A stretch of 64,000 nt of DNA from Candidatus Gottesmanbacteria bacterium RIFCSPLOWO2_01_FULL_43_11b (GTDB lineage Bacteria; Patescibacteriota; Microgenomatia; UBA10105; UBA927): positions 158,980-222,979 of the forward strand of contig MFJV01000001.1 of NCBI GenBank assembly GCA_001780985.1, written 5' to 3'. The notes under the pieces were generated by a model that saw nothing but the letters and a program-made list of their open reading frames with translations, was not told the DNA's origin and did no database searches. Positions 17,533 through 60,611 of the stretch are shown here, piece by piece. Both the position numbers and the translations under genes were made by a program. The first letter of the stretch is position 1. Each line of letters starts with the position of its first letter.

Positions 17533-17611
17533 GTAAAACTTGACAATATTCTAGCATATCTTTAGTATGAAGAGGTTAGGTTCTTTAAAAGAGGGCGGAA
17601 ATTGGAAAATT

Positions 17612-17770
17612 TAAAGCGTGTGGACCAGCCCCTCGCGAGGAGCTGGTATACGAGGAAGGGGAAAATCGAATAGCCCGCCAGTCGGCGGATAAATCTGCGG
17701 ATACCCCTTGGTAGCGCTCTCTACCACAACAATAGACAGAAATGACTATTGAGGAGCCCGTCTCTCTTTC
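17612..17770 (+). ncRNA. glmS ribozyme (GlcN6P-responsive self-cleaving riboswitch), 5' leader of glmS
   Basis: AGCGUGUGGACCAGC...GCUGG is a P1 hairpin. ACGAGGAAGG...AUCGAAUAGCCCGCCAGUCGGCGGAU matches the conserved core GACGAGGA...AUCGAAUU..CGGCGGAUGCC of the B. subtilis glmS ribozyme. It lies directly upstream of glmS. Confidence 0.55.
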
Positions 17771-27053: not shown

Positions 27054-27252
27054 TGGGTGATCCAGGGATCGAACCTGGGACCTCGTTCTTATATCACCCG
27101 AGTGATATTTCACGCAAAATGATAATGTGGGTGCGCATGGAATCGAACCATGTGCCTCTTTCTTATCAGGAAAGCGTTCTACCAGTGAACTACGCACCCT
27201 TCTTCATTTTGCGTGAACGCAGGAACGCGCTCTACCACTGAGCCAATCACCC
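27054..27252 (-). tRNA. interrupted tRNA-Ile(GAU)-like gene. Exons about 27220-27252 and 27054-27092. The 127-nt insert contains an intact tRNA-Ile.
   Basis: Exon 1: GGGTGATTGGCTCAGTGGTAGAGCGCGTTCCTG. Exon 2: ATAAGAACGAGGTCCCAGGTTCGATCCCTGGATCACCCA. Together they give a perfect cloverleaf (7/7 acceptor, canonical D- and T-arms, loop CUGAUAA). Confidence 0.5.
27128..27199 (-). tRNA. tRNA-Ile (anticodon GAU)
   Basis: GGGTGCGTAGTTCACTGGTAGAACGCTTTCCTGATAAGAAAGAGGCACATGGTTCGATTCCATGCGCACCCA. Confidence 0.9.
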
Positions 27253-27267
27253 TTTAAAACAAATTTG

Positions 27268-27339
27268 AGGTGCGGAGGGGAATCGAACCCCTGTGTTGCG
27301 GTTTTGCAGACCGCCGCGTTACCTCTTCGCCACCGCACC
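27268..27339 (-). tRNA. tRNA-Ala (anticodon UGC)
   Basis: GGTGCGGTGGCGAAGAGGTAACGCGGCGGTCTGCAAAACCGCAACACAGGGGTTCGATTCCCCTCCGCACC. Anticodon loop CTGCAAA. Confidence 0.9.
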
Positions 27340-27966: not shown

Positions 27967-28663
27967 CATGTTTATTCCCGGTTTTCACCGGGGCATGGAC
28001 TATATCTTCATCCGCAAAAATTGACGTTTTTCTGGATGAACCGAACCAATTATTTTTGCAAAATCGTTGTAAGACCTTGCCGAAATATAAAATCTCCAAT
28101 AATTCGGATCAACCGTTTTACTAGGATTATGAATTACTCCACAATGAATACTTAATTCTTCTAAATAGTGTTTTACTTGTAAAAGATCTTGCTTGTCCTT
28201 TTGACAAAAATACAAGTAATACCTCACCGAAGAATTTTTAGCAATACCACCTTCTGCATCGAAATAACCTCGGATATATTCGATTTTGTCGTTCTTAGAA
28301 CGTATTTCAATATCTCGTAAAATCTTTTTCGGAAATTCTACTATCCAAAGATTACGAGACTTTCCTTCTTTATATATCCAAGCTCCAACATGTAATTTAC
28401 GAATTCCTATTTTTAGAAACTGCGCAAATTCTCTACTGTTAGTTGCTATTCGATAGGTAGATTGCCGACTGGTACCATCGTGAGCCATTCCCAATAAATA
28501 TGGTTTCGTCATATGCGGCGCCAACGTGTAGTCTCTACGGAGTCCCCGATATAATCAGGGTTCCCTCGGTATTCCCATATGTTGATTATAAACCAAGCAT
28601 GAAGGGTTCACCGATACAGTTGGATTTTCCCATACCCTTACGGATATGGGTCGCAACAAACTT
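27967..28663 (-). mobile_element. group-I-like intron in 16S rRNA between AAGTCGT and AACAAGG (about E. coli position 1498/1499)
   Basis: The conserved 16S sequence CCTTGTT|ACGACTT is split by 697 nt. The 5' exon ends in U and the intron ends in G (omega-G). It contains a LAGLIDADG ORF. Confidence 0.6.
28000..28524 (-). CDS. intron-encoded LAGLIDADG homing endonuclease
   Basis: 174 aa. LAGLIDADG-type motif YIRGYFDAEGGIA. Basic, inside the 16S intron. Confidence 0.65.
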   Translation of the reverse strand: MAPHMTKPYLLGMAHDGTSRQSTYRIATNSREFAQFLKIGIRKLHVGAWIYKEGKSRNLWIVEFPKKILRDIEIRSKNDKIEYIRGYFDAEGGIAKNSSVRYYLYFCQKDKQDLLQVKHYLEELSIHCGVIHNPSKTVDPNYWRFYISARSYNDFAKIIGSVHPEKRQFLRMKI

Positions 28664-29056
28664 ACGACTTAGTCCCCATCGCTGAGTTCGGCTTCGACCG
28701 TAAAAACGGCCTTCAGCCGCCCCCAACTTTGTTGGCTTGACGGGCGGTGTGTACAAGACCCGAGAACGTATTCACCGCAGCCTTCTGATCTGCGATTACT
28801 ACCGATTCCGACTTCATGAGGGCGGGTTGCAGCCCTCAATCTGAACTGAGGCGAAATTTCAGGGATTTGCTTGCCATTACTAGTTTGCATCCCATTGTTT
28901 TTCGCCATTGTAGGGTGTGTGTTACCCAGGGTATAAGCGCCGTGCTGACTTGACGTCGTCCGTTCCTTCCTCCCCGATACATATCGGGGCAGTCTCCGAT
29001 GACACTTATAACATCGGATACGGGTTGCGCTCGTTCTCCTACTTAAAGGAACACCC

Positions 29057-29087
<31 letters not shown>

Positions 29088-29202
29088 GCTGTGATACCAT
29101 CCTTGCGGATAGCCTACTATTTCTAGCGGGTTAAAACGGTACCATGTCAAACCCTGGTAAGGTTTTTCGCTTTGTCTCGAATTGAACCACACGCTCCACC
29201 GG

Positions 29203-29234
<32 letters not shown>

Positions 29235-30286
29235 TAATCTTGCGATCGTACTCCCCAGGCGGTCTGCTTAACGCGTTAGCTTACGTCAGTCCCCCTTGCG
29301 GCGGACCAACTAGCAGACATGCGTTTAGGGCTAGGACTACGCAGGTCTCTAATCTGCTTCGCTCCCCTAGCTTTCGTGTCTCAGCGTTAGGTGTGGGCCA
29401 GAAAGGTGCCTTCGCCTTTGGTGTTCCTCATGATATCAACGCATTTCACTGCTTCACCATGAGTTCCCCTTTCCTCTCCCATCCTCAAAGACTCCCCATC
29501 TCGAACCCAACGCCGAGGTTAAGCCTCGGGCTTTCAGGTTCGATGCGGAAATCCGCCTACACGACACTTTACGCCCAGTGAATCCGGATAACGCTTGCAC
29601 CCTACGTATTACCGCGACTGCTGGCCCGCCACAATTTTTTGTAGCGAACTTTGGACTATATCATCACCCCACAGATTGGGGGTCTCGCGTGTAGTCTCTG
29701 AGGACTCTCCCCGCCATCCTTTCATTATAAATGAAGGCGGAGGTTGCCTGCTGATTGTCTTGATACATGCTTGCTTTCGCAAAACTATTTCGCGGACATA
29801 TCAAGGTGTTCCAGCATATAGCGAGATTTTCTTTTACCGTATTACTACAGTAACTACGCACCATCCGATTACATCGAATCACGTAGTTTGTAGGTGCTTA
29901 TTCGCCAAACCTCGATGATCTGGCAAAAGAGGTTTACATACCGAAATACTTCATCCCTCACGCGGCGTCGCTCGGTCAGGCTTTCGCCCATTGCCGAATA
30001 TTCCTAGTTGCTGCCATCCGTAGATGTATAGCCCGTGTCTCAGTGCTATTGTGGGGGGTCGCGCTCTCACGCCCCCTACCCGTCATCGCCTTGGTAGGCC
30101 ATTACCCCACCAACAAGCTGATAGGAGCAAGGCCGCTCTTCCTCCGTGCCGTTACGCACTTTGATCTTACGACCTCATGGAATATTACCCCGTCTTTCGA
30201 CGAGCTATGTTCCAGAAAAAGGTACGTTCCTTGCTTATACTCACCCGTCCGCCACTAATCTTTCGACCGTTCAACTTGCATGCCTA

Positions 30287-30329
<43 letters not shown>

Positions 30330-30470
30330 AAAAAAAATTAACGTCCCGGATATCATGATTCGCTTACGCTCATCACCATCCGGGTCCGGCTGATGTCGCA
30401 ACGCGACATAATAGCCGGATTCCTATCACCATTCGTTTGTCAAATGTTAATGTGCGACTCTCAATGAGCG

Positions 30471-51246: not shown

Positions 51247-51504
51247 ATGGCCCGCCGAAGACCTGCATTATTGCGACAAAAAGACATTGCTTCATGGAAT
51301 TTCATCATATTCCTCACTCTTGCTTTTATTCTTCTGGTTATCGTTTTGACTGCAAGTAACCGTATCGCTCTCGATGTTCGTAGTCGTGCAGCCGGAGCCT
51401 GTCCGTCTGTGACACTGCCGCGAGCAGAAGATTGTCCTGACGGATGGACGTTTAAGCGTGATACAACGGGTTGTGTGGCTTTTTTCTGCGAAGCTAAGCC
51501 TTAA
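51247..51504 (+). CDS. hypothetical small membrane-anchored Cys-containing protein
   Basis: 85 aa. Transmembrane segment, then CPSVTLPRAEDCPDG...CVAFFC. Confidence 0.35.
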   Translation: MARRRPALLRQKDIASWNFIIFLTLAFILLVIVLTASNRIALDVRSRAAGACPSVTLPRAEDCPDGWTFKRDTTGCVAFFCEAKP

Positions 51505-53248: not shown

Positions 53249-53491
53249 CAGGCTATGAAAATGACAAAAGAAACAAACGCCATACTTTTATTAACAACGT
53301 TATCTGCATTCGCAAATCGTGACATCACCGGAATTCCAACCCCTCAATCAATAGAGCCTCTTCCATTTCATCCAAAAGGACCGATTATCAAACTTCCGGA
53401 AAAACCTAAACTATACGTTCGGACAAAAAATAAAGGACCACACAAACGCGGTACTTGACAGGATTGTACGTATCTTCTACTATTTCTCTCA

Positions 53492-53875
53492 ATGGACGGA
53501 GAACCGACGTCTGCCCCAATTTCTTCTGCCCCATCAATATCTCCAAAAGGCAAAAAGGCCGGATGGAAGCTGATTCTCTTAGGTGTCCTTCTTTTGGCTG
53601 CACTTAGTCTTGGAGGAACAGCCGTCTACCAGGCAATTCGTGGCGCACAACCTACCCCGACCCCAACACCGGCTCCCACGCCAACTCCTGAGCCGACTCC
53701 AACACCGCAGCCCTCACCGACAAAGAAACCAACGCCGACGCCAACCAAAAAACCAACGCCGACAGCAACACCAACATCAGCGCCAACCGGAACACCAACT
53801 CCCACACCAACTGAAGGCCCTACGCCAACACCGACACCGACCGGCACGCCTGCGCCCACTCCGACTGGCACATAA
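53492..53875 (+). CDS. membrane-anchored Pro/Thr-rich protein
   Basis: Transmembrane segment, then a ~90-aa ([14 protein letters not shown]...) low-complexity tail. Confidence 0.45.
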
Positions 53876-53924
53876 ATTTTTCTCCCCTCTTGATTTTTTC
53901 ACACTATGATGTTTAACTTATTCT

Positions 53925-54440
53925 ATGGAAGAAAAGACAAAAGCAGGTGAAGGAGAAAATTCAGCACTGTATTACGGCATTGGAGCTGCAGTTTTGGTTA
54001 TCTTGGTTGCCGGAATTTATATTTTCCGTCCGAAAACATCTCCCACCACATCTCCTGTTTCTCCTGGTGCACAAGTAACTGATATCCCCCTTGTACGGCC
54101 AACCGGCCCAATCACTGGCTTAGCCTGTGAACTCCAATATTACAACCCGGTTGTGGGAAAGAAAGAATTCTACGTGAGTGTTGAGGGAGCGGCGCTACCT
54201 GATGCTAAATCAGTCGACTGCAACTTTACTTTTAGCGTTGCAGGAAGCGTTGTGAAGACAGACAGTATTACTGATGCAAAACTTGTTGAAGAAAAATCCC
54301 GAAACGGAAAACTATTCACCTGCACGACAGTGCCGCTTGAACTGGAACCTAGTGTACCTACAACAGTTGACTTTGCCCTCTCTGATGATCTGAAAAATAC
54401 AGCCACCTGTTCCTCCACCTTCCTCTTCCCCGCCCCCTAA
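53925..54440 (+). CDS. hypothetical membrane-anchored 4-Cys protein
   Basis: 171 aa. N-terminal transmembrane segment, then a beta-rich domain. Confidence 0.45.
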   Translation: MEEKTKAGEGENSALYYGIGAAVLVILVAGIYIFRPKTSPTTSPVSPGAQVTDIPLVRPTGPITGLACELQYYNPVVGKKEFYVSVEGAALPDAKSVDCNFTFSVAGSVVKTDSITDAKLVEEKSRNGKLFTCTTVPLELEPSVPTTVDFALSDDLKNTATCSSTFLFPAP

Positions 54441-54518
54441 AGCAGTCCGTATCCTATATTACACTCCTTTTCTACGGAACTCATATAATGGATATGCGTC
54501 TATGATTGGGCAATAAAA

Positions 54519-55733
54519 ATGAAAAAGTATGGGCTTGTAGTTCTCATATTTTTACCGTTAGTCTTCCTTTTTCCTACCAGGGCGTTTGCCGAAGATTCCT
54601 CTTACTCCTGCTCCGTCACTCATCAGACAGTTTCCACAATTCCAAGGAGCTTCTTTGGCATGTTCACTCCCATCAACCGCATACCCGTGTCCGGGGATCA
54701 ACAACTGAAACTTTTTCAACGAATCAAGGATTCGGGTATTTATTCCGTCCGGGTGCAAATACAATGGCACAGAATTGAAAGGGTTGAGAATGAATATCAA
54801 TGGGAAAATTACGATTCCATCCTCCAAACTATCGAGAGTGTTGGCCTTAGAGCCTTGCCGGTACTTATTGGTGTACCTTCATGGGCCCGCCCATCAACGG
54901 GTCCAATGGCCAGAAAAATCGTCATAGATCCCGAACGCTATGAAGATTGGCAAGATTTCGTTGCTGAAGCAACCAGACGATACGGTGTAAACGGCGGCAC
55001 GGTTGCAAACGTTGCGTCTGACTGGGAAATCTGGAATGAGCCGAATGGGGAAAATTTCTTTCAAGGAACCCCGCAGGACATGGTCACAACCCTCAACCTG
55101 GCCTATCAGACAATCAAAAGCATCGATCCGCAATCAAAAGTCTGGTCGCAGGCTGCTTCCACCACAGGCTTAACCGGCACGAGAGATTTTTTTGAAGCGA
55201 TAGTCAAAGACGGATATTTCGATGTTCTTACCATCCATCTTTATGCAACCACCGAAAAAGCAATCGAACTTGCAACTTCAGCCCAACAATACCTTCGAGA
55301 AAACGGCAACAGCGTCAACAAAGAGGCAAAACTGTCAATTACCGAAACCAATCCCCTGCCTGTCGGGCACCAATGCGAATCCGTCAACAGTCTTAGTGAA
55401 CAGGAAATGGCCGATATAATAACTAATCACTATGCTTGTCTTTCCCAGGCGGGTGCCGATTCTGTCTACTATTTCATGGCGCTGGATTTACCTGATCCGT
55501 CATGTTCAGGAGGTACGGTTAAAGTAGGTATCCTAAACCCGGATCTGACCCCGCGCGCTTTATACAGTGCAATCAAAGAAATGATAACAATCGTCAGTCC
55601 GCAAACCCCTTTAGGCGACCTCAATTCTGACGGGAAAGTAGACATTTTCGACTACAACATCCTCGTTGAGAATTTCGGCAATCCGTACACAATTTTCGAC
55701 TATAATACACTTGTAGAGCGTTTTGGTACGTAA
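54519..55733 (+). CDS. secreted GH5-like glycoside hydrolase with a C-terminal dockerin module
   Basis: Signal peptide. WEIWNEPN (acid/base). SITETNP (nucleophile). C-terminus GDLNSDGKVDIFDYNILVENFG...TIFDYNTLVERFG (dockerin Ca-binding repeats). Confidence 0.6.
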   Translation: MKKYGLVVLIFLPLVFLFPTRAFAEDSSYSCSVTHQTVSTIPRSFFGMFTPINRIPVSGDQQLKLFQRIKDSGIYSVRVQIQWHRIERVENEYQWENYDSILQTIESVGLRALPVLIGVPSWARPSTGPMARKIVIDPERYEDWQDFVAEATRRYGVNGGTVANVASDWEIWNEPNGENFFQGTPQDMVTTLNLAYQTIKSIDPQSKVWSQAASTTGLTGTRDFFEAIVKDGYFDVLTIHLYATTEKAIELATSAQQYLRENGNSVNKEAKLSITETNPLPVGHQCESVNSLSEQEMADIITNHYACLSQAGADSVYYFMALDLPDPSCSGGTVKVGILNPDLTPRALYSAIKEMITIVSPQTPLGDLNSDGKVDIFDYNILVENFGNPYTIFDYNTLVERFGT

Positions 55734-56316
55734 AGGAAAATTTATGATGCCACCTTCACCAAGTTCTGAAGACCTCACGGAGATTACTGAGGTACAAAAG
55801 CCAAAACGGAGATGGTGGGTTGTCGTGGCGATTCCTCTGGGAATATTCGTTCTGCTGGGAATTGGTTTTTACCCGTTGATACAAACTACTGCTCCAACTC
55901 CAACACCCAAACCCACACCGATACTGCAAGAGTCCAATGCGTCAACTGTCCTTTCGGTAGATAGCGACAACGCAACAAGCACTCCTCTACTAGTTTCCGT
56001 CCCAATTACTATTAATACAGGAAAAAATACAGTGTCTGCTGTCGAACTTCATCTCTCTTTCGACCCCCAAAAGTCAAAGAATGCGAGCGTCTCCGCAGGG
56101 GCATTTTTTACCGACCCGACAATTTTAAAAAATGAAGTTGACCAAACAAACGGAAAAATCACCTTCATCCTTGGCTCTCTCACCCCCAAGCAAGGAACCG
56201 GTGTCGTCGCCATTCTCTCTCTCGAGCCCGTCGGAACGATCACTCTAGCTATAGATCCTGAGACGAAAGTTGCGGCTATCGGAGAAAAAGAAAATGTTCT
56301 CAAAAGCTACAAATGA
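55723..56316 (+). CDS. membrane-anchored cohesin-like domain protein
   Basis: Transmembrane segment, PT linker, then GKNTVSAVELHLSFDPQK...GTGVVAILSLEPV, which resembles type-I cohesin (…DFVFRYDPNVLEI…). Confidence 0.45.
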   Translation: MVRKGKFMMPPSPSSEDLTEITEVQKPKRRWWVVVAIPLGIFVLLGIGFYPLIQTTAPTPTPKPTPILQESNASTVLSVDSDNATSTPLLVSVPITINTGKNTVSAVELHLSFDPQKSKNASVSAGAFFTDPTILKNEVDQTNGKITFILGSLTPKQGTGVVAILSLEPVGTITLAIDPETKVAAIGEKENVLKSYK

Positions 56317-57284
56317 AACGATTCGCGCTCTTGCTTCCGTTACTTTTGCTTATCATAGCCATTCCGATCGGAGTCTACTATATTGGGCAAAGACAAGATA
56401 TTCGAGATCGGGCTGCTCCATCAACAACGCTCTCACTGTCTCCTTCATCCATATCAAAACAACAGGGTAATACTCTTTCCCTCGATGTAACTATCGACAC
56501 GGGAGAAAATACAGTCTCTGCGATTGAACTTGTCGTCAACACCGATCCGGCAAAAGTAAAAATAACAGGTATCGCTGCCGATGATTTTTTTAGCCAATCC
56601 CTCATTGAACCGGCGTTCACCGACAGCCGTGCCACCATGACCCGCGGTACACCACCGACATCTCCGCGTCAAGGAACCGGAACGGTGGCTACAGTCACAT
56701 TAGAAGTCGTCGCGGGAAACGGAACCGCCCAGATTACACTGGCAGGATCTCAAGTTGCTGGCATTGGTGAGCAGGGAAATGTTTTGAGTGGTACGGCGCC
56801 TGCAACGGTCACGATCACCTCTTCGACAAATCCGACTCCGACGCCCACTCCAACATCAGCTCCCGGGAGCACACCCACGCCCACACCCACCCCAACTCCA
56901 ACCCCAACAGAATCAGGGGAAACAGGAGCTGTTTCTCTTACAAGTCCGGTAAGCGGAGCAACGGTAACGACTGATACACCCACGCTTAAGGGAACCGCGC
57001 CTGCCGGCAGCACGGTCACGATTACTATTTACAGTGATCCGATCACGGTCACCGTAACCGCAGATAGTAATGGACGTTGGACCTATACTCCAACCCAATC
57101 ACTTTCCGATGGACAGCATCAGGTCGTCATATCAACAGCGGCAGAAGACGGATCGACGCTGACAGAGTCATCATCCTTTTATGTCCAAACGCAGGATATT
57201 CCGGTAACCGGAAATAACTGGCTTTACATAACCCTGATTGTCGCAGGGTTATTTTTCATTGGTTCTGGTATGCTGATACTGTGA
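56313..57284 (+). CDS. cohesin-like + PT-linker + Ig-like domain protein with a C-terminal hydrophobic anchor
   Basis: GENTVSAIELVVNTDPAKVKITGIAADDF...QGTGTVATVTLEV. PTPTPTS linker. Ig-like repeat. Ends ..IPVTGNNWLYITLIVAGLFFIGSGMLIL. Confidence 0.45.
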   Translation: MKRFALLLPLLLLIIAIPIGVYYIGQRQDIRDRAAPSTTLSLSPSSISKQQGNTLSLDVTIDTGENTVSAIELVVNTDPAKVKITGIAADDFFSQSLIEPAFTDSRATMTRGTPPTSPRQGTGTVATVTLEVVAGNGTAQITLAGSQVAGIGEQGNVLSGTAPATVTITSSTNPTPTPTPTSAPGSTPTPTPTPTPTPTESGETGAVSLTSPVSGATVTTDTPTLKGTAPAGSTVTITIYSDPITVTVTADSNGRWTYTPTQSLSDGQHQVVISTAAEDGSTLTESSSFYVQTQDIPVTGNNWLYITLIVAGLFFIGSGMLIL

Positions 57285-58066
57285 AGAAACTATCGATCAT
57301 TGTCCTTTTTATTTCTCTCTTGTTTCTGGCTGTAGTCGCCCTGACTGTATCTCTCGTCCAGCGAAGGCAGGAGGTGCGCACACGGGCAACCGCCGCTACC
57401 ACACTCTCCATTATCCCAAGCTCCGTCCAGGCACATATTGGCGATACGTTCTCCGTCGACGTGTGGATTAACACCGGAGAAAATACGGTCTCCGCTGCAA
57501 CCGTTGTTGTAACGTTTAACAGCAACGTGCTTACTGGGGTTTCAATTCAGCCGGGAACATTCCTCAGCGTGCCCCTTGAACCAGGCAGTTTCTCCGCAGG
57601 TGTCGCTCGCATAAGCCTCGGAAGTCAACCGACTGCGCCGGTCCAAGGAAGTGGGGCTTTATTTACCCTCACGTTTCAGGCAACCGGTGTTGGCACGACA
57701 ACTATCACATTTGATCCAACCACCGTCGTTGCCGCTCTCGGACACACAACGAGTGTCCTGACGGGAACGACCCCCGGCTCAATCACCGTCTCCCTTGTTC
57801 CCACTCCAACTCCCACACCAACAATCACGCCTACCCCAACCCCATCTCCAACACCCACGCCCACAGCAACACCTACCCCAACACCGCTGCCTCCTCGTCC
57901 TGGAGATCTAGATCTTGATAGAGATGTCGACATTTACGATTACAATCTCCTCGTTACTGATTTTGGAAAAACGGGGACAGCGGGTTTTATTGCGGCTGAC
58001 ATTGACAAAAACGGCAAAGTGGATATTTTTGACTACAATATTCTTGTGGAAGAATTCGGGAAATAA
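57281..58066 (+). CDS. cohesin-like + PT-linker + dockerin protein (adaptor scaffoldin-like)
   Basis: GENTVSAATVVVTFNSNVLTGVSIQPGTF...GSGALFTLTFQA. C-terminal GDLDLDRDVDIYDYNLLVTDFG...ADIDKNGKVDIFDYNILVEEFGK. Confidence 0.5.
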   Translation: MKKLSIIVLFISLLFLAVVALTVSLVQRRQEVRTRATAATTLSIIPSSVQAHIGDTFSVDVWINTGENTVSAATVVVTFNSNVLTGVSIQPGTFLSVPLEPGSFSAGVARISLGSQPTAPVQGSGALFTLTFQATGVGTTTITFDPTTVVAALGHTTSVLTGTTPGSITVSLVPTPTPTPTITPTPTPSPTPTPTATPTPTPLPPRPGDLDLDRDVDIYDYNLLVTDFGKTGTAGFIAADIDKNGKVDIFDYNILVEEFGK

Positions 58067-59560: not shown

Positions 59561-60166
59561 ATGAATAAATCTCATCCCCTTTCAAAGAAAAAACTTCAAC
59601 AATTCTATGGACAGGGAAATTCACTGTCTGAAATTGCGACTCTGTTCGATTGTTCTGTTCATAAAGTGATTTATTGGATGCAACGTTACGCAATTGCACG
59701 TCGTTCTAGAAGTGATGCGGCGTATATAAAATTAAATCCTAACGGCGACCCATTCTTTATTCAAAAAGAAAAATCGTTATTTCTCTACGGTCTTGGATTA
59801 GGAATCTATTGGGGTGAGGGAACAAAAGTAACTGGTCTTGTTCGAGTGACCAATTCTGATCCTGCGATGATCAAGGTTTTTAGAGAATTCTTGATACAAA
59901 TATGCGGAGTGCGAGATGATAAAATTCATTACAGCATTGTTGCGTTCAATGATAGTCATATTCCGACAGTTCAATCATTCTGGGCGACCTATCTGAAGAT
60001 TTCTCCTGACAAATTTGGTAAAATCGTACAGATACCGCCGCAAGGCAAAGGCTCATATAAGCGAAAGTCTCAATTTGGCGTCTGCTCTATTTCAGTAGGT
60101 AATATTAAACTGAAACATTGGATCATGCAGGAGCTGGAAAAAATTAAAGAAGCCCGGATAGTTTAG
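59561..60166 (+). CDS. helix-turn-helix + LAGLIDADG-like protein (possible free-standing homing endonuclease), 3' end overlapping tRNA-Thr
   Basis: N-terminal sigma-70 region-4-like helix-turn-helix (GNSLSEIATLFDCSVHKVIYWMQRY). FLYGLGLGIYWGEGTK resembles a single LAGLIDADG motif. Confidence 0.4.
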   Translation: MNKSHPLSKKKLQQFYGQGNSLSEIATLFDCSVHKVIYWMQRYAIARRSRSDAAYIKLNPNGDPFFIQKEKSLFLYGLGLGIYWGEGTKVTGLVRVTNSDPAMIKVFREFLIQICGVRDDKIHYSIVAFNDSHIPTVQSFWATYLKISPDKFGKIVQIPPQGKGSYKRKSQFGVCSISVGNIKLKHWIMQELEKIKEARIV

Positions 60167-60223
60167 TGGCAAAACGTTCCCTTGGTAAGGGAATGAGCGG
60201 GGGTTCGATTCCCCCTCCGGGCT
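60152..60223 (+). tRNA. tRNA-Thr (anticodon GGU)
   Basis: GCCCGGATAGTTTAGTGGCAAAACGTTCCCTTGGTAAGGGAATGAGCGGGGGTTCGATTCCCCCTCCGGGCT. Confidence 0.9.
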
Positions 60224-60224
60224 C

Positions 60225-60611
60225 ATGTCCAAACTGCCCAAAAAACAAATTCAAAAATCATTCGGTCGGGAGCTCGTGCTCGATCTCTACGATTGCGACC
60301 TCAAGAAAATTTCATCAAAGAGGGAAATCCACAAGTTTGTTATAGAGCTTTGCGATAATGTCATCAAAATGAAGCGGTATGGCAGAGCGCTCATCCCTCA
60401 CTTTGGCCATGCCGATCCCGTAACAAGCGGCTACTCACTCGTCCAACTTATTGAAACAAGCTCCGTGTCCGCCCATTTTTCGGAACTGAAGCGAAGCGTG
60501 TATCTCAACATCTTCTCTTGCGCACCTTTTGATGCCAAAAAAACAACAGCCTTTTGCAAAAAATTCTTTAGGGCAAAGCGCGTGAAATTACATCTTATTA
60601 AAAGAAGCTAA
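60225..60611 (+). CDS. speH: S-adenosylmethionine decarboxylase proenzyme (small SpeH type)
   Basis: …LVQLIETSSVSAHFSELKRSVYLNIFSC… matches the AdoMetDC self-processing ES|S site and FxCG region. Starts 2 nt after the tRNA. Confidence 0.65.
   Translation: MSKLPKKQIQKSFGRELVLDLYDCDLKKISSKREIHKFVIELCDNVIKMKRYGRALIPHFGHADPVTSGYSLVQLIETSSVSAHFSELKRSVYLNIFSCAPFDAKKTTAFCKKFFRAKRVKLHLIKRS

Follow-up and report, generated by a model that had tools for sequence, protein, structure and literature searches.

Non-cellulosomal cohesins and dockerins have reportedly long been known, from work attributed to Peer et al. 2009. A cellulosome proper is defined by a scaffoldin with two or more cohesins, and outside cellulosomes the parent proteins of cohesins and dockerins are mostly non-catalytic (PMC13487519). 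A much smaller arrangement is formed by ClcC and ClcD of Cellulosilyticum lentocellum, where ClcC carries a family 3 carbohydrate-binding module (CBM3), ClcD is a functional glycoside hydrolase family 5 (GH5) cellulase, and binding and synergy were shown experimentally (PMC13487519). Among bacteria of the Candidate Phyla Radiation (CPR), one article describes expressed cohesin and dockerin genes in Candidatus Shapirobacterales, a group of Microgenomates (Bell et al. 2022, PMC9123182), and refers to a 'cellulosome' in Candidatus Roizmanbacterium (Geesink et al. 2020, as cited in PMC9123182). With their tiny genomes, CPR bacteria command few biosynthetic pathways, so the question arises how they acquire sugars and how they deal with surfaces or hosts. 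Here we describe a 64-kb stretch of Candidatus Gottesmanbacteria (CPR/Patescibacteria) DNA, referred to as the window, with six open reading frames (ORFs), P1 to P6, within positions 53492-58066. All six had been listed in an original prediction made from the letters of the sequence and were found again at the same coordinates. Our results suggest that the operon 54519-58066, which comprises P3 to P6, is probably a minimal, membrane-tethered, non-cellulosomal cohesin-dockerin system for surface display of an enzyme.

P4, P5 and P6 contain one cohesin apiece. With the Pfam Cohesin family (PF00963, cut-off 24.1 bits), P4 scored 32.5 bits, P6 41.1 bits and P5 23.6 bits, the last being 0.5 bits short. 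A cohesin hidden Markov model (HMM) built from homologues and run over the 64 kb recovered only P4 (E=6e-25), P5 (6e-33) and P6 (6e-45), far beyond chance. P4 is also named 'Cohesin domain-containing protein' in UniRef and NCBI (OGG23826.1). Evidence of fold by modelling was obtained for P6 among these three proteins. An AlphaFold2 model based on 44 homologues (mean predicted local distance difference test score, pLDDT, 93.2) begins with a helix (residues 2-37), continues into a beta-sandwich (40-171) and ends, past a linker, in a two-helix module. When this model was compared with the PDB by Foldseek, the first 39 matches were all cohesins, with type I cohesins leading (1g1k, TM-score 0.82; 6kgd, TM-score 0.79 and root-mean-square deviation, rmsd, 2.1 Å), and the non-cellulosomal cohesin 2xdh of Archaeoglobus and modules of Clostridium perfringens were among the structural matches. 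The cohesin-like domains that the original prediction placed in the three genes downstream of the enzyme are thus borne out by Pfam for P4 and P6, by the family HMM for all three and by the fold of P6, and the beta-sandwich does not fall into unrelated families. Further features proposed at that time are likewise present: N-terminal hydrophobic segments and Pro/Thr linkers in the cohesin proteins, an immunoglobulin (Ig)-like domain of the Big_13 family in P5, an IPVTG motif with a hydrophobic tail at the end of P5 (a tail type conserved in four homologues), and an adaptor-like third protein, P6, which joins a cohesin to a dockerin.

A six-frame scan of the 64 kb for the dockerin Ca-loop/helix motif retrieved only the products of P3 and P6. 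The P3 dockerin matches the family dockerin HMM with E=3e-10, and a profile built from ten sequences of the module aligns end to end with the solved dockerin 2y3n_B (E=2e-6) and also picks up dockerins from C. perfringens, A. cellulolyticus and C. thermocellum. In close relatives the same module passes the cut-off of Pfam Dockerin_1 (PF00404), with 24.3 bits in contig L001 (8824-9990) and 25.1 bits in contig L003 (5078-7063). Canonical Asp or Asn residues occupy positions 1, 3, 5, 9 and 12 of both Ca loops of P6 and of loop 1 of P3. The 'double dockerin' first assigned to P6 is in fact one ordinary dockerin made of two repeats, so that a second dockerin on this protein is ruled out. For P3, the dockerin module proposed at the outset is confirmed, and it consists of a complete first repeat plus the helix of the second, with a single Ca loop. 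The same short form is found in the distant homologues P0114 and P0116, whose catalytic domains are 28-41% identical to that of P3. This recurrence shows that the variant has been maintained, so that an accidental one-off deletion in P3 is ruled out. Together, the sequence profiles and structural models confirm that the cohesin and dockerin modules of the operon are genuine; motif scanning and family HMMs over the 64 kb confine them to P3, P4, P5 and P6.

These four genes form a tight, translationally coupled operon, since P4 and P5 (56313-56316) and P5 and P6 (57281-57284) overlap stop-to-start by 4 nt each and the P4 start codon, ATG 55744, lies 10 nt past the P3 stop behind an AAGGA Shine-Dalgarno sequence. 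This ATG is the probable start of P4, as compared with TTG 55723, and NCBI OGG23826.1 is likewise 190 aa long.

The arrangement recurs in other genomes. Related contigs were traced from P6 homologues, and a locus search with closer alignment yielded 8 loci, the source genome not being among them. In the window and in L001 (a 120-kb contig), L003 (Gottesmanbacteria), L009 (Patescibacteria) and L016, one to five dockerin-tagged genes adjoin two to four tandem cohesin genes, which number three in four of the five contigs. L001, L003 and L009 have three tandem single-cohesin genes beside one to five genes ending in the same dockerin, and L016 has a row of four cohesin-bearing genes. Each of the five contigs encodes one cohesin protein with a dockerin (class A, P6 in the window) and one with a C-terminal hydrophobic anchor (class C, P5). 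A short cohesin protein of class B type (P4) occurs in all except L009, which has divergent cohesins in second and third place. L001 and L003 share the gene order A-B-C, the window has B-C-A, and P4 finds its best matches in the short middle cohesin genes of those two contigs. The cargo differs from contig to contig: the window has a GH39-like enzyme, L001 two unknown proteins of ~400 aa, L003 both sulfatases and FG-GAP-like proteins, and L009 an enzyme resembling GH28/pectate lyases. In a large database, the ~40-residue dockerin (60-89% identical) was found on GH43, GH10, GH5, GH16, GH32, beta-helix, esterase, sulfatase and BNR proteins. Because the cargo is varied and cohesin genes lie alongside, the dockerin behaves as a portable docking tag with its sockets encoded next to it. 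This conserved gene adjacency suggests that the cohesins of P4 to P6 may bind the dockerins of P3 and P6. Of the 'organised assembly' seen in the original prediction, the pairing of dockerin and cohesin genes therefore stands, being conserved in other genomes, and a cellulose-type complex is unsupported.

Related proteins reach far greater complexity. An exhaustive search with the P6 cohesin domain retrieved 1,465 representative clusters at E<=1e-3, of which 222 also reached E<=1e-10. The best match (40% identity), P0239, is a protein of 2,276 aa whose nine cohesins are accompanied by Big_7/fn3 inserts and a dockerin at the C-terminus; two-cohesin proteins of about 520 aa are numerous among the relatives, and P0240 also has two cohesins. 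P0239 is encoded at 4650-11480 of L019 (1-14820; JGI 3300065536 contig, GC 43.5%), near a GH44 enzyme with a dockerin of the window type, 'DIFDYNILVGNFGK'. The same contig also codes for two cupredoxins, for two cohesin proteins with signal peptides, for a short cohesin resembling class B and for an incomplete protein that has two or more cohesins. The nine-cohesin scaffoldin and the GH44-dockerin protein of L019 make the window operon a minimal member of a family that elsewhere reaches cellulosome-grade complexity. With these 1,465 clusters and the Shapirobacterales and Roizmanbacterium precedents, the view that such a locus would be unusual in a reduced-genome bacterium was overstated. Another relative, encoded at 8001-10844 of L013 (Candidatus Gottesmanbacteria nzgw407), is a 947-aa protein that unites an N-terminal cohesin, CBM_4_9, VWA and a C-terminal dockerin. 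In L001 (12243-18248) and L003 (11347-17215), the cohesin triad is followed by two GT4 genes and by NTP-transferase, Bac_transf and DUF4012 genes, that is, by genes of envelope-polysaccharide synthesis. The window lacks this polysaccharide-synthesis neighbourhood, hence the cassette has moved relative to its surroundings.

P3, the enzyme of the operon, was originally taken for a GH5 enzyme. The motifs WEIWNEPN and ITETN named at that time are both present in the product of 54519-55733, and their glutamates are conserved across homologues (E174 invariant, E276 kept in at least 90% of 25 homologues). The family assignment had to be revised. P3 scores 21.1 bits with Pfam Cellulase/GH5 (PF00150), under the cut-off of 23.5, and 39.6 bits with GH39 (PF01229, cut-off 26), in a match that spans positions 36-279 only of the 472 profile positions. 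Among solved structures, its sequence is closest to PslG, the GH39 enzyme that hydrolyses the Psl exopolysaccharide of Pseudomonas (E=1e-13 across residues 58-363, identity about 20%). In Foldseek searches with the AlphaFold2 model of P3 (pLDDT 88.7), PslG occupies ranks 1-3 (E~1e-17) and eight further GH39 chains ranks 4-11, with GH10 and GH5_18 after them. E174 and E276 of P3 align with E165 and E276 of PslG, which are its catalytic residues (PMC4928890), in agreement with the catalytic pair of clan GH-A, an acid/base Glu in N-E-P behind strand 4 and a nucleophile Glu behind strand 7. A GH39-type C-terminal beta-sandwich is absent from the P3 model; beyond the barrel, from about residue 360 on, the chain forms just the two helices of the dockerin. 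UniRef names P3 a GH39 N-terminal catalytic domain-containing protein. By Pfam, solved relatives and Foldseek, the catalytic domain of P3 is thus GH39/PslG-like and not a cellulase. Rather than cellulose, P3 probably attacks a heteropolysaccharide or exopolysaccharide of non-cellulosic type.

What the data show, namely which modules are present, how the operon is built, that the arrangement of genes is conserved between genomes and to which family the enzyme belongs, can be assembled into a model of surface display. P3 would be exported via its classical signal peptide; as a GH39/PslG-type member of clan GH-A, it would be a retaining endoglycosidase, with a Ca-binding dockerin at its C-terminus. 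P4, P5 and P6 would be held in or at the cytoplasmic membrane by their N-terminal hydrophobic segments, each displaying one type-I-like cohesin on a Pro/Thr stalk. By capturing the P3 dockerin, these cohesins would retain both the enzyme and the sugars that it releases on the surface of the very small cell. The P6 dockerin, with Tyr11/Thr18 in repeat 1, may plug into another cohesin and so make P6 a one-socket adaptor, and P5, with its Ig stalk and PVTG-type hydrophobic tail, would be the likeliest base anchor. Dedicated docking of this kind would explain how such small cells avoid the diffusive loss of costly enzymes and their products. Within this model we infer cohesin-dockerin binding, the pairs that form, the membrane topology and the substrate.

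Several observations weigh against surface display. The 64-kb window shows one cargo gene only, P3. With Pfam Dockerin_1, P6 scores 19.3 bits and P3 14.0 bits, both under the 22.9 cut-off, so that the Pfam check suggested with the original prediction fails for both proteins, whereas the profile match to a solved dockerin described above holds. In the P3 model, the two dockerin helices (376-386 and 392-402) have a pLDDT of about 65, and the second Ca loop is missing while the second helix is kept; for these reasons the P3 dockerin may bind weakly or not at all. The P6 cohesin is nearer to the class C than to the class A cohesins of the relatives. Classes A, B and C are therefore not cleanly orthologous, clean orthology holding for class B only. 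The N-terminal hydrophobic segments of P4 to P6 could be cleaved signal peptides rather than anchors, in which case these proteins would be released unless otherwise held. Moreover, non-cellulosomal cohesin- and dockerin-like modules are said, again after Peer et al. 2009, not always to be paired with each other.

The locus was initially called minimal cellulosome-like. Its connectors are indeed alike, and P3 is a dockerin-fused glycoside hydrolase, as expected of a cellulosomal component, though not a cellulase. Nevertheless, Pfam found no carbohydrate-binding module (CBM) in any of the six proteins, the window encodes no multi-cohesin scaffoldin, and no cellulase occurs in the operon or in the scanned flanking genes; for lack of a scaffoldin with at least two cohesins, of a CBM and of a cellulase, the operon with its single cohesins falls outside the strict definition. 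A true minimal cellulosome for the breakdown of cellulose or plant cell walls, with a GH5 cellulase as cargo, would agree with a P6 cohesin fold nearest to type I cellulosomal cohesins, with the one-cohesin, one-enzyme 'minimal cellulosome' characterised in C. lentocellum (PMC13487519) and with the nine-cohesin scaffoldin paired with GH44 in L019. Given a GH39/PslG-like P3 whose GH5 score is under the cut-off, and the missing components just listed, we regard it as highly improbable. P3 might also serve housekeeping and not scavenging, trimming or releasing the cell's own exopolysaccharide or wall glycan while the cohesins hold it by the export machinery. PslG, its closest solved relative, is encoded in the psl biosynthetic operon of Pseudomonas (PMC4928890), and the cohesin triads of L001 and L003 lie directly upstream of GT4, NTP-transferase, Bac_transf priming transferase and DUF4012 genes. 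Such envelope maintenance seems unlikely to us, as the window operon has tRNAs, an ArsR-type regulator and an aminotransferase beside it instead of glycan-synthesis genes, the cargo of the relatives is degradative and varied (sulfatases, a GH28-like enzyme, and GH44 in L019), and P3 has neither the N-terminal transmembrane anchor nor the C-terminal beta-sandwich of PslG.

The dockerin and cohesin genes adjacent in five independent contigs, and the many different enzymes that bear the dockerin, make an absence of pairing hard to explain. They bear on the proposal that the cohesin, Ig and dockerin modules are independent adhesins to a host or substrate with no mutual pairing, a role put forward for giant proteins rich in dockerins in other ultra-small bacteria. 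This proposal can point to a dockerin-domain protein that is essential in the epibiotic Saccharibacterium Se, for which host-glycan targeting was proposed (PMC10633639), and to non-cellulosomal dockerins proposed as adhesins in Omnitrophota (PMC10066038). The Ig-like stalk of P5 and the L013 protein, with its cohesin, CBM4_9, VWA and dockerin, would fit it as well. We nonetheless judge adhesion quite unlikely in view of the gene adjacency and the varied enzymes. We know of no host for Gottesmanbacteria, which also counts against it, and host attachment is speculation. Surface display of P3 by the cohesins of P4 to P6 remains the reading that we prefer.

The dockerins of the surface-display operon and its relatives fall into two sequence types. 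Repeat 1 of the scaffold-borne dockerins of the window (P6, 57902-57967), L001 and L003 has Tyr11 and Thr18 (DIYDYN·LVT). In all 15 distinct cargo dockerins, position 11 of repeat 1 is Phe and position 18 also differs from the scaffold-borne type. In L009 and L016, the dockerin of the class A protein is quite different from that of the adjacent cargo. In type I dockerins, specificity classically resides in positions 10, 11, 17 and 18. Tyr11/Thr18 versus Phe11 is therefore a candidate specificity switch, and two pairing specificities, hence a two-level assembly, are plausible from these sequences.

Cohesin proteins of classes A and C share a juxtamembrane motif, Q-x-Q-E/D-x-R-x-R/K-A-A, between the hydrophobic segment and the first cohesin strand (…TTLS…). 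It lies at 56385-56417 and 57359-57391 in the window and is also found in L001, L003, L009 and L016 and in the homologues P0007, P0009, P0015, P0025, P0028 and P0240. In about 230 kb of related DNA the motif was observed on cohesin proteins only, so that a general export signal was rejected and the motif looks family-specific. AlphaFold models it as a continuation of the transmembrane helix. It may mark a site of processing or an element that interacts close to the membrane. An 85-aa ORF at 51247-51504 (+), without a Pfam family, encodes a hydrophobic segment at its N-terminus, then …VRSRAAG… and a tail rich in Cys; its R-S-R-A-A is similar to the end of the cohesin juxtamembrane motif.

The tail of P5 consists of IPVTG and 23 hydrophobic or neutral residues, without a basic tail. 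Tails of this type, [IVLP]PV[TS][GA] followed by ~22 hydrophobic residues, are kept in P0007, P0009, P0015 and P0025. Among curated sorting-signal models (TIGR01167 and PF00746 were considered), the homologue tails gave sub-threshold scores, 21.1 bits against 30 for strep_LAETG and 13-14 bits against 20 for Gram_pos_anchor, and the P5 tail itself resembled only faintly the end, bearing LPXTG, of a YfkN-type protein. An exosortase- or archaeosortase-type signal was rejected, as no such model matched and only weak sortase-type matches were obtained. A TLxTC signature scan found no sortase in the window, where Pfam covered part of the ORFs; a lone TLxTC (33373, minus strand) lies out of frame inside a 528-aa membrane glycosyltransferase-like ORF. 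Nor was a sortase observed near L016 or, for homologues of the same build as P5, within a distance of 10 kb. The tail is thus conserved and, as a sortase signal, putative and unproven.

Features of the locus in window coordinates
Feature	Position	Strand	Description
P1	53492-53875	+	127 aa; one hydrophobic segment (residues 22-49), Pro/Thr-rich tail; membership doubtful
P2	53925-54440	+	171 aa; hydrophobic segment (residues 12-37), Cys-containing domain; membership doubtful; OGG23824.1 'Uncharacterized protein'
P3, cargo enzyme	54519-55733	+	signal peptide, GH39/PslG-like barrel, short C-terminal dockerin
P3 signal peptide	54519-54590 (residues 1-24)	+	...TRAFA/ED, classical type
P3 (beta/alpha)8 catalytic domain	54690-55607 (residues 58-363)	+	GH39/PslG-like
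P3 acid/base E174	55038-55040	+	in WNEPN
P3 nucleophile E276	55344-55346	+	in ITETN
P3 dockerin, short variant	55614-55730 (residues 366-404)	+	repeat 1 complete, DLNSDGKVDIFDYNILVENFG; repeat 2 helix only, NPYTIFDYNTLVERFG
P4, class B	55744-56316	+	190 aa; hydrophobic segment 55807-55887, short Pro/Thr stretch, one cohesin 55939-56307
P5, class C, candidate anchoring protein	56313-57284	+	hydrophobic segment, cohesin, Pro/Thr linker, Ig-like domain, IPVTG tail
P5 N-terminal hydrophobic segment	56313-56390	+	followed by juxtamembrane motif GQRQDIRDRAA
P5 cohesin	56418-56822	+	Pfam borderline, family HMM E=6e-33
P5 Big_13 Ig-like domain	56967-57185	+	Pfam 40.1 bits
P5 IPVTG and 23-residue hydrophobic tail	57198-57281	+	C-terminal
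P6, class A, candidate adaptor	57281-58066	+	hydrophobic helix, cohesin, Pro/Thr linker, one dockerin
P6 N-terminal hydrophobic helix with QRRQEVRTRA	57281-57391	+	
P6 cohesin	57392-57793	+	Pfam 41.1 bits
P6 Pro/Thr linker	57794-57901	+	
P6 dockerin	57902-58063	+	two repeats, DLDLDRDVDIYD... and DIDKNGKVDIFD..., both Ca loops intact

The two proteins ahead of the enzyme had originally been counted with the system. Their ORFs and hydrophobic segments are present, and their place in the system lacks support: the related loci provide none for either P1 or P2 as a conserved component. P1 has no Pfam family and matches other proteins solely via low-complexity Pro/Thr repeats, and P2 has no significant Pfam or NCBIfam family and no relative in any related locus. 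Upstream of P1, a promoter-like TTGACA-17-TACTAT occurs at 53455-53483; such sites are not commoner than in shuffled sequence. The flanks of the operon are unrelated housekeeping genes, with tRNA-Thr, tRNA-Tyr and an ArsR-type regulator upstream and a convergent class I/II aminotransferase gene downstream. The GC content rises to 0.51 at 56001-58000, compared with about 0.43 window-wide, and this rise coincides with the Pro/Thr linkers of P5 and P6 (ACN/CCN codons), so that a foreign origin need not be invoked. Further along, a 201-aa ORF without a Pfam match (59561-60166, +) overlaps the start of a tRNA-Thr(GGT) gene (60152-60224) by about 15 nt, and an S-adenosylmethionine decarboxylase gene begins at 60225, after this tRNA.

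The reduced-genome setting of the original prediction agrees with the CPR affiliation and with the presence of a group I intron inside the 16S rRNA gene of the window. This gene lies at 28616-30335 (-), about 1,720 nt long, with the intron at 29631-29890 (Rfam RF00028, 57 bits); intron-interrupted 16S rRNA genes are a frequent trait among CPR bacteria. tRNA-Ile and tRNA-Cys follow the 16S rRNA gene at 27127-27339, and no 23S rRNA gene was seen within the 64-kb window. A glmS ribozyme/riboswitch was found at 17604-17761 (+), with 43.7 bits against a gathering score of 37 (Rfam RF00234).

Microgenomates-type CPR bacteria may possess a cohesin-dockerin lineage of their own, with a membrane-tethered A/B/C set, the juxtamembrane motif, two dockerin subtypes for hierarchical assembly and from one cohesin per protein (the window) to nine (L019), by which ultra-small cells would hold changeable hydrolases (GH39, GH28, GH44, sulfatases and others) on their surface. 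We put this broader proposal forward tentatively, as possible and somewhat short of probable. If true, it would mean that a cellulosome-like strategy evolved or was adapted outside Firmicutes and fungi, with the membrane in place of S-layer anchoring. A dedicated docking system of this kind would also extend cohesin-dockerin machinery beyond cellulolytic Firmicutes, and its short, highly conserved dockerin (…DIFDYNILV·NFG…) and small single-cohesin partners could serve as compact orthogonal parts for designer scaffolds.

Compared with clostridial cellulosomes, the likeness lies in the modules. The beta-sandwich of P6 resembles the type I cohesins of C. cellulolyticum (1g1k/2vn5), C. acetobutylicum (CaCohA2, 6kgd) and C. 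thermocellum (1anu/1ohz), with TM-scores of 0.74-0.82 and rmsd values of 2.1-2.3 Å, whereas sequence identity to solved cohesins is only 11-23%. The dockerins of the window family, like the clostridial ones, have two Ca-binding repeats of roughly 22 residues with near-identical helices. In both cases a dockerin stands at the C-terminus of a secreted glycoside hydrolase, and a protein with a cohesin and a dockerin resembles an adaptor scaffoldin. In contrast to the clostridial systems, the operon encodes single cohesins and not arrays, no CBM and no surface-layer homology (SLH) anchor; it has N-terminal hydrophobic anchors with a juxtamembrane motif, and its cargo is GH39/PslG-like and not a cellulase. 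As for the enzyme, PslG of Pseudomonas aeruginosa (GH39; 5bx9, 4zn2, 9g17) shares the (beta/alpha)8 barrel and both aligned catalytic glutamates with P3. PslG has a transmembrane anchor where P3 has a signal peptide of the cleavable type, and a C-terminal beta-sandwich where P3 has its dockerin.

P5 is comparable to ScaE of Ruminococcus flavefaciens (2zf9, among the structural matches of P6), a single-cohesin anchoring protein with a C-terminal sorting-type signal. ScaE is anchored by sortase via LPXTG. P5 differs in its IPVTG without a basic tail, which is below all curated sortase-signal thresholds in a window where no sortase was seen, and in its extra N-terminal hydrophobic segment and Ig domain. 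The non-cellulosomal modules of Archaeoglobus fulgidus (2xdh) and of the GH84 and GH33 proteins of C. perfringens (2jh2, 2vo8, 2ozn), among which 2xdh and the C. perfringens modules were structural or profile matches, resemble the operon in coming from organisms without a cellulolytic lifestyle; in the operon, however, the dockerin is on an enzyme, and the cohesin and cargo genes form a conserved cassette. As in the operon, the single-cohesin ClcC gene of C. lentocellum adjoins that of a single dockerin-fused glycoside hydrolase, ClcD, and this pair too is outside the two-cohesin definition (PMC13487519). The operon is set apart from it by three cohesin proteins, the absence of a CBM, a GH39-like enzyme and putative membrane tethers.

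Nearest in taxonomy, the Shapirobacterales and Roizmanbacterium share with the window organism the superphylum, a groundwater habitat and annotated cohesin and dockerin domains, and they appear to be reported at the level of domain annotation. The gain is a well-defined and testable minimal example rather than a new principle, the idea having been published before for related CPR lineages. Cohesin and dockerin genes in other Microgenomates, a one-cohesin, one-enzyme system and the UniRef names of P3 and P4 are already known; to these, the sequences analysed here appear to add a conserved cohesin gene cassette, dockerin subtypes, a juxtamembrane motif, a short dockerin variant and a C-terminal PVTG tail.

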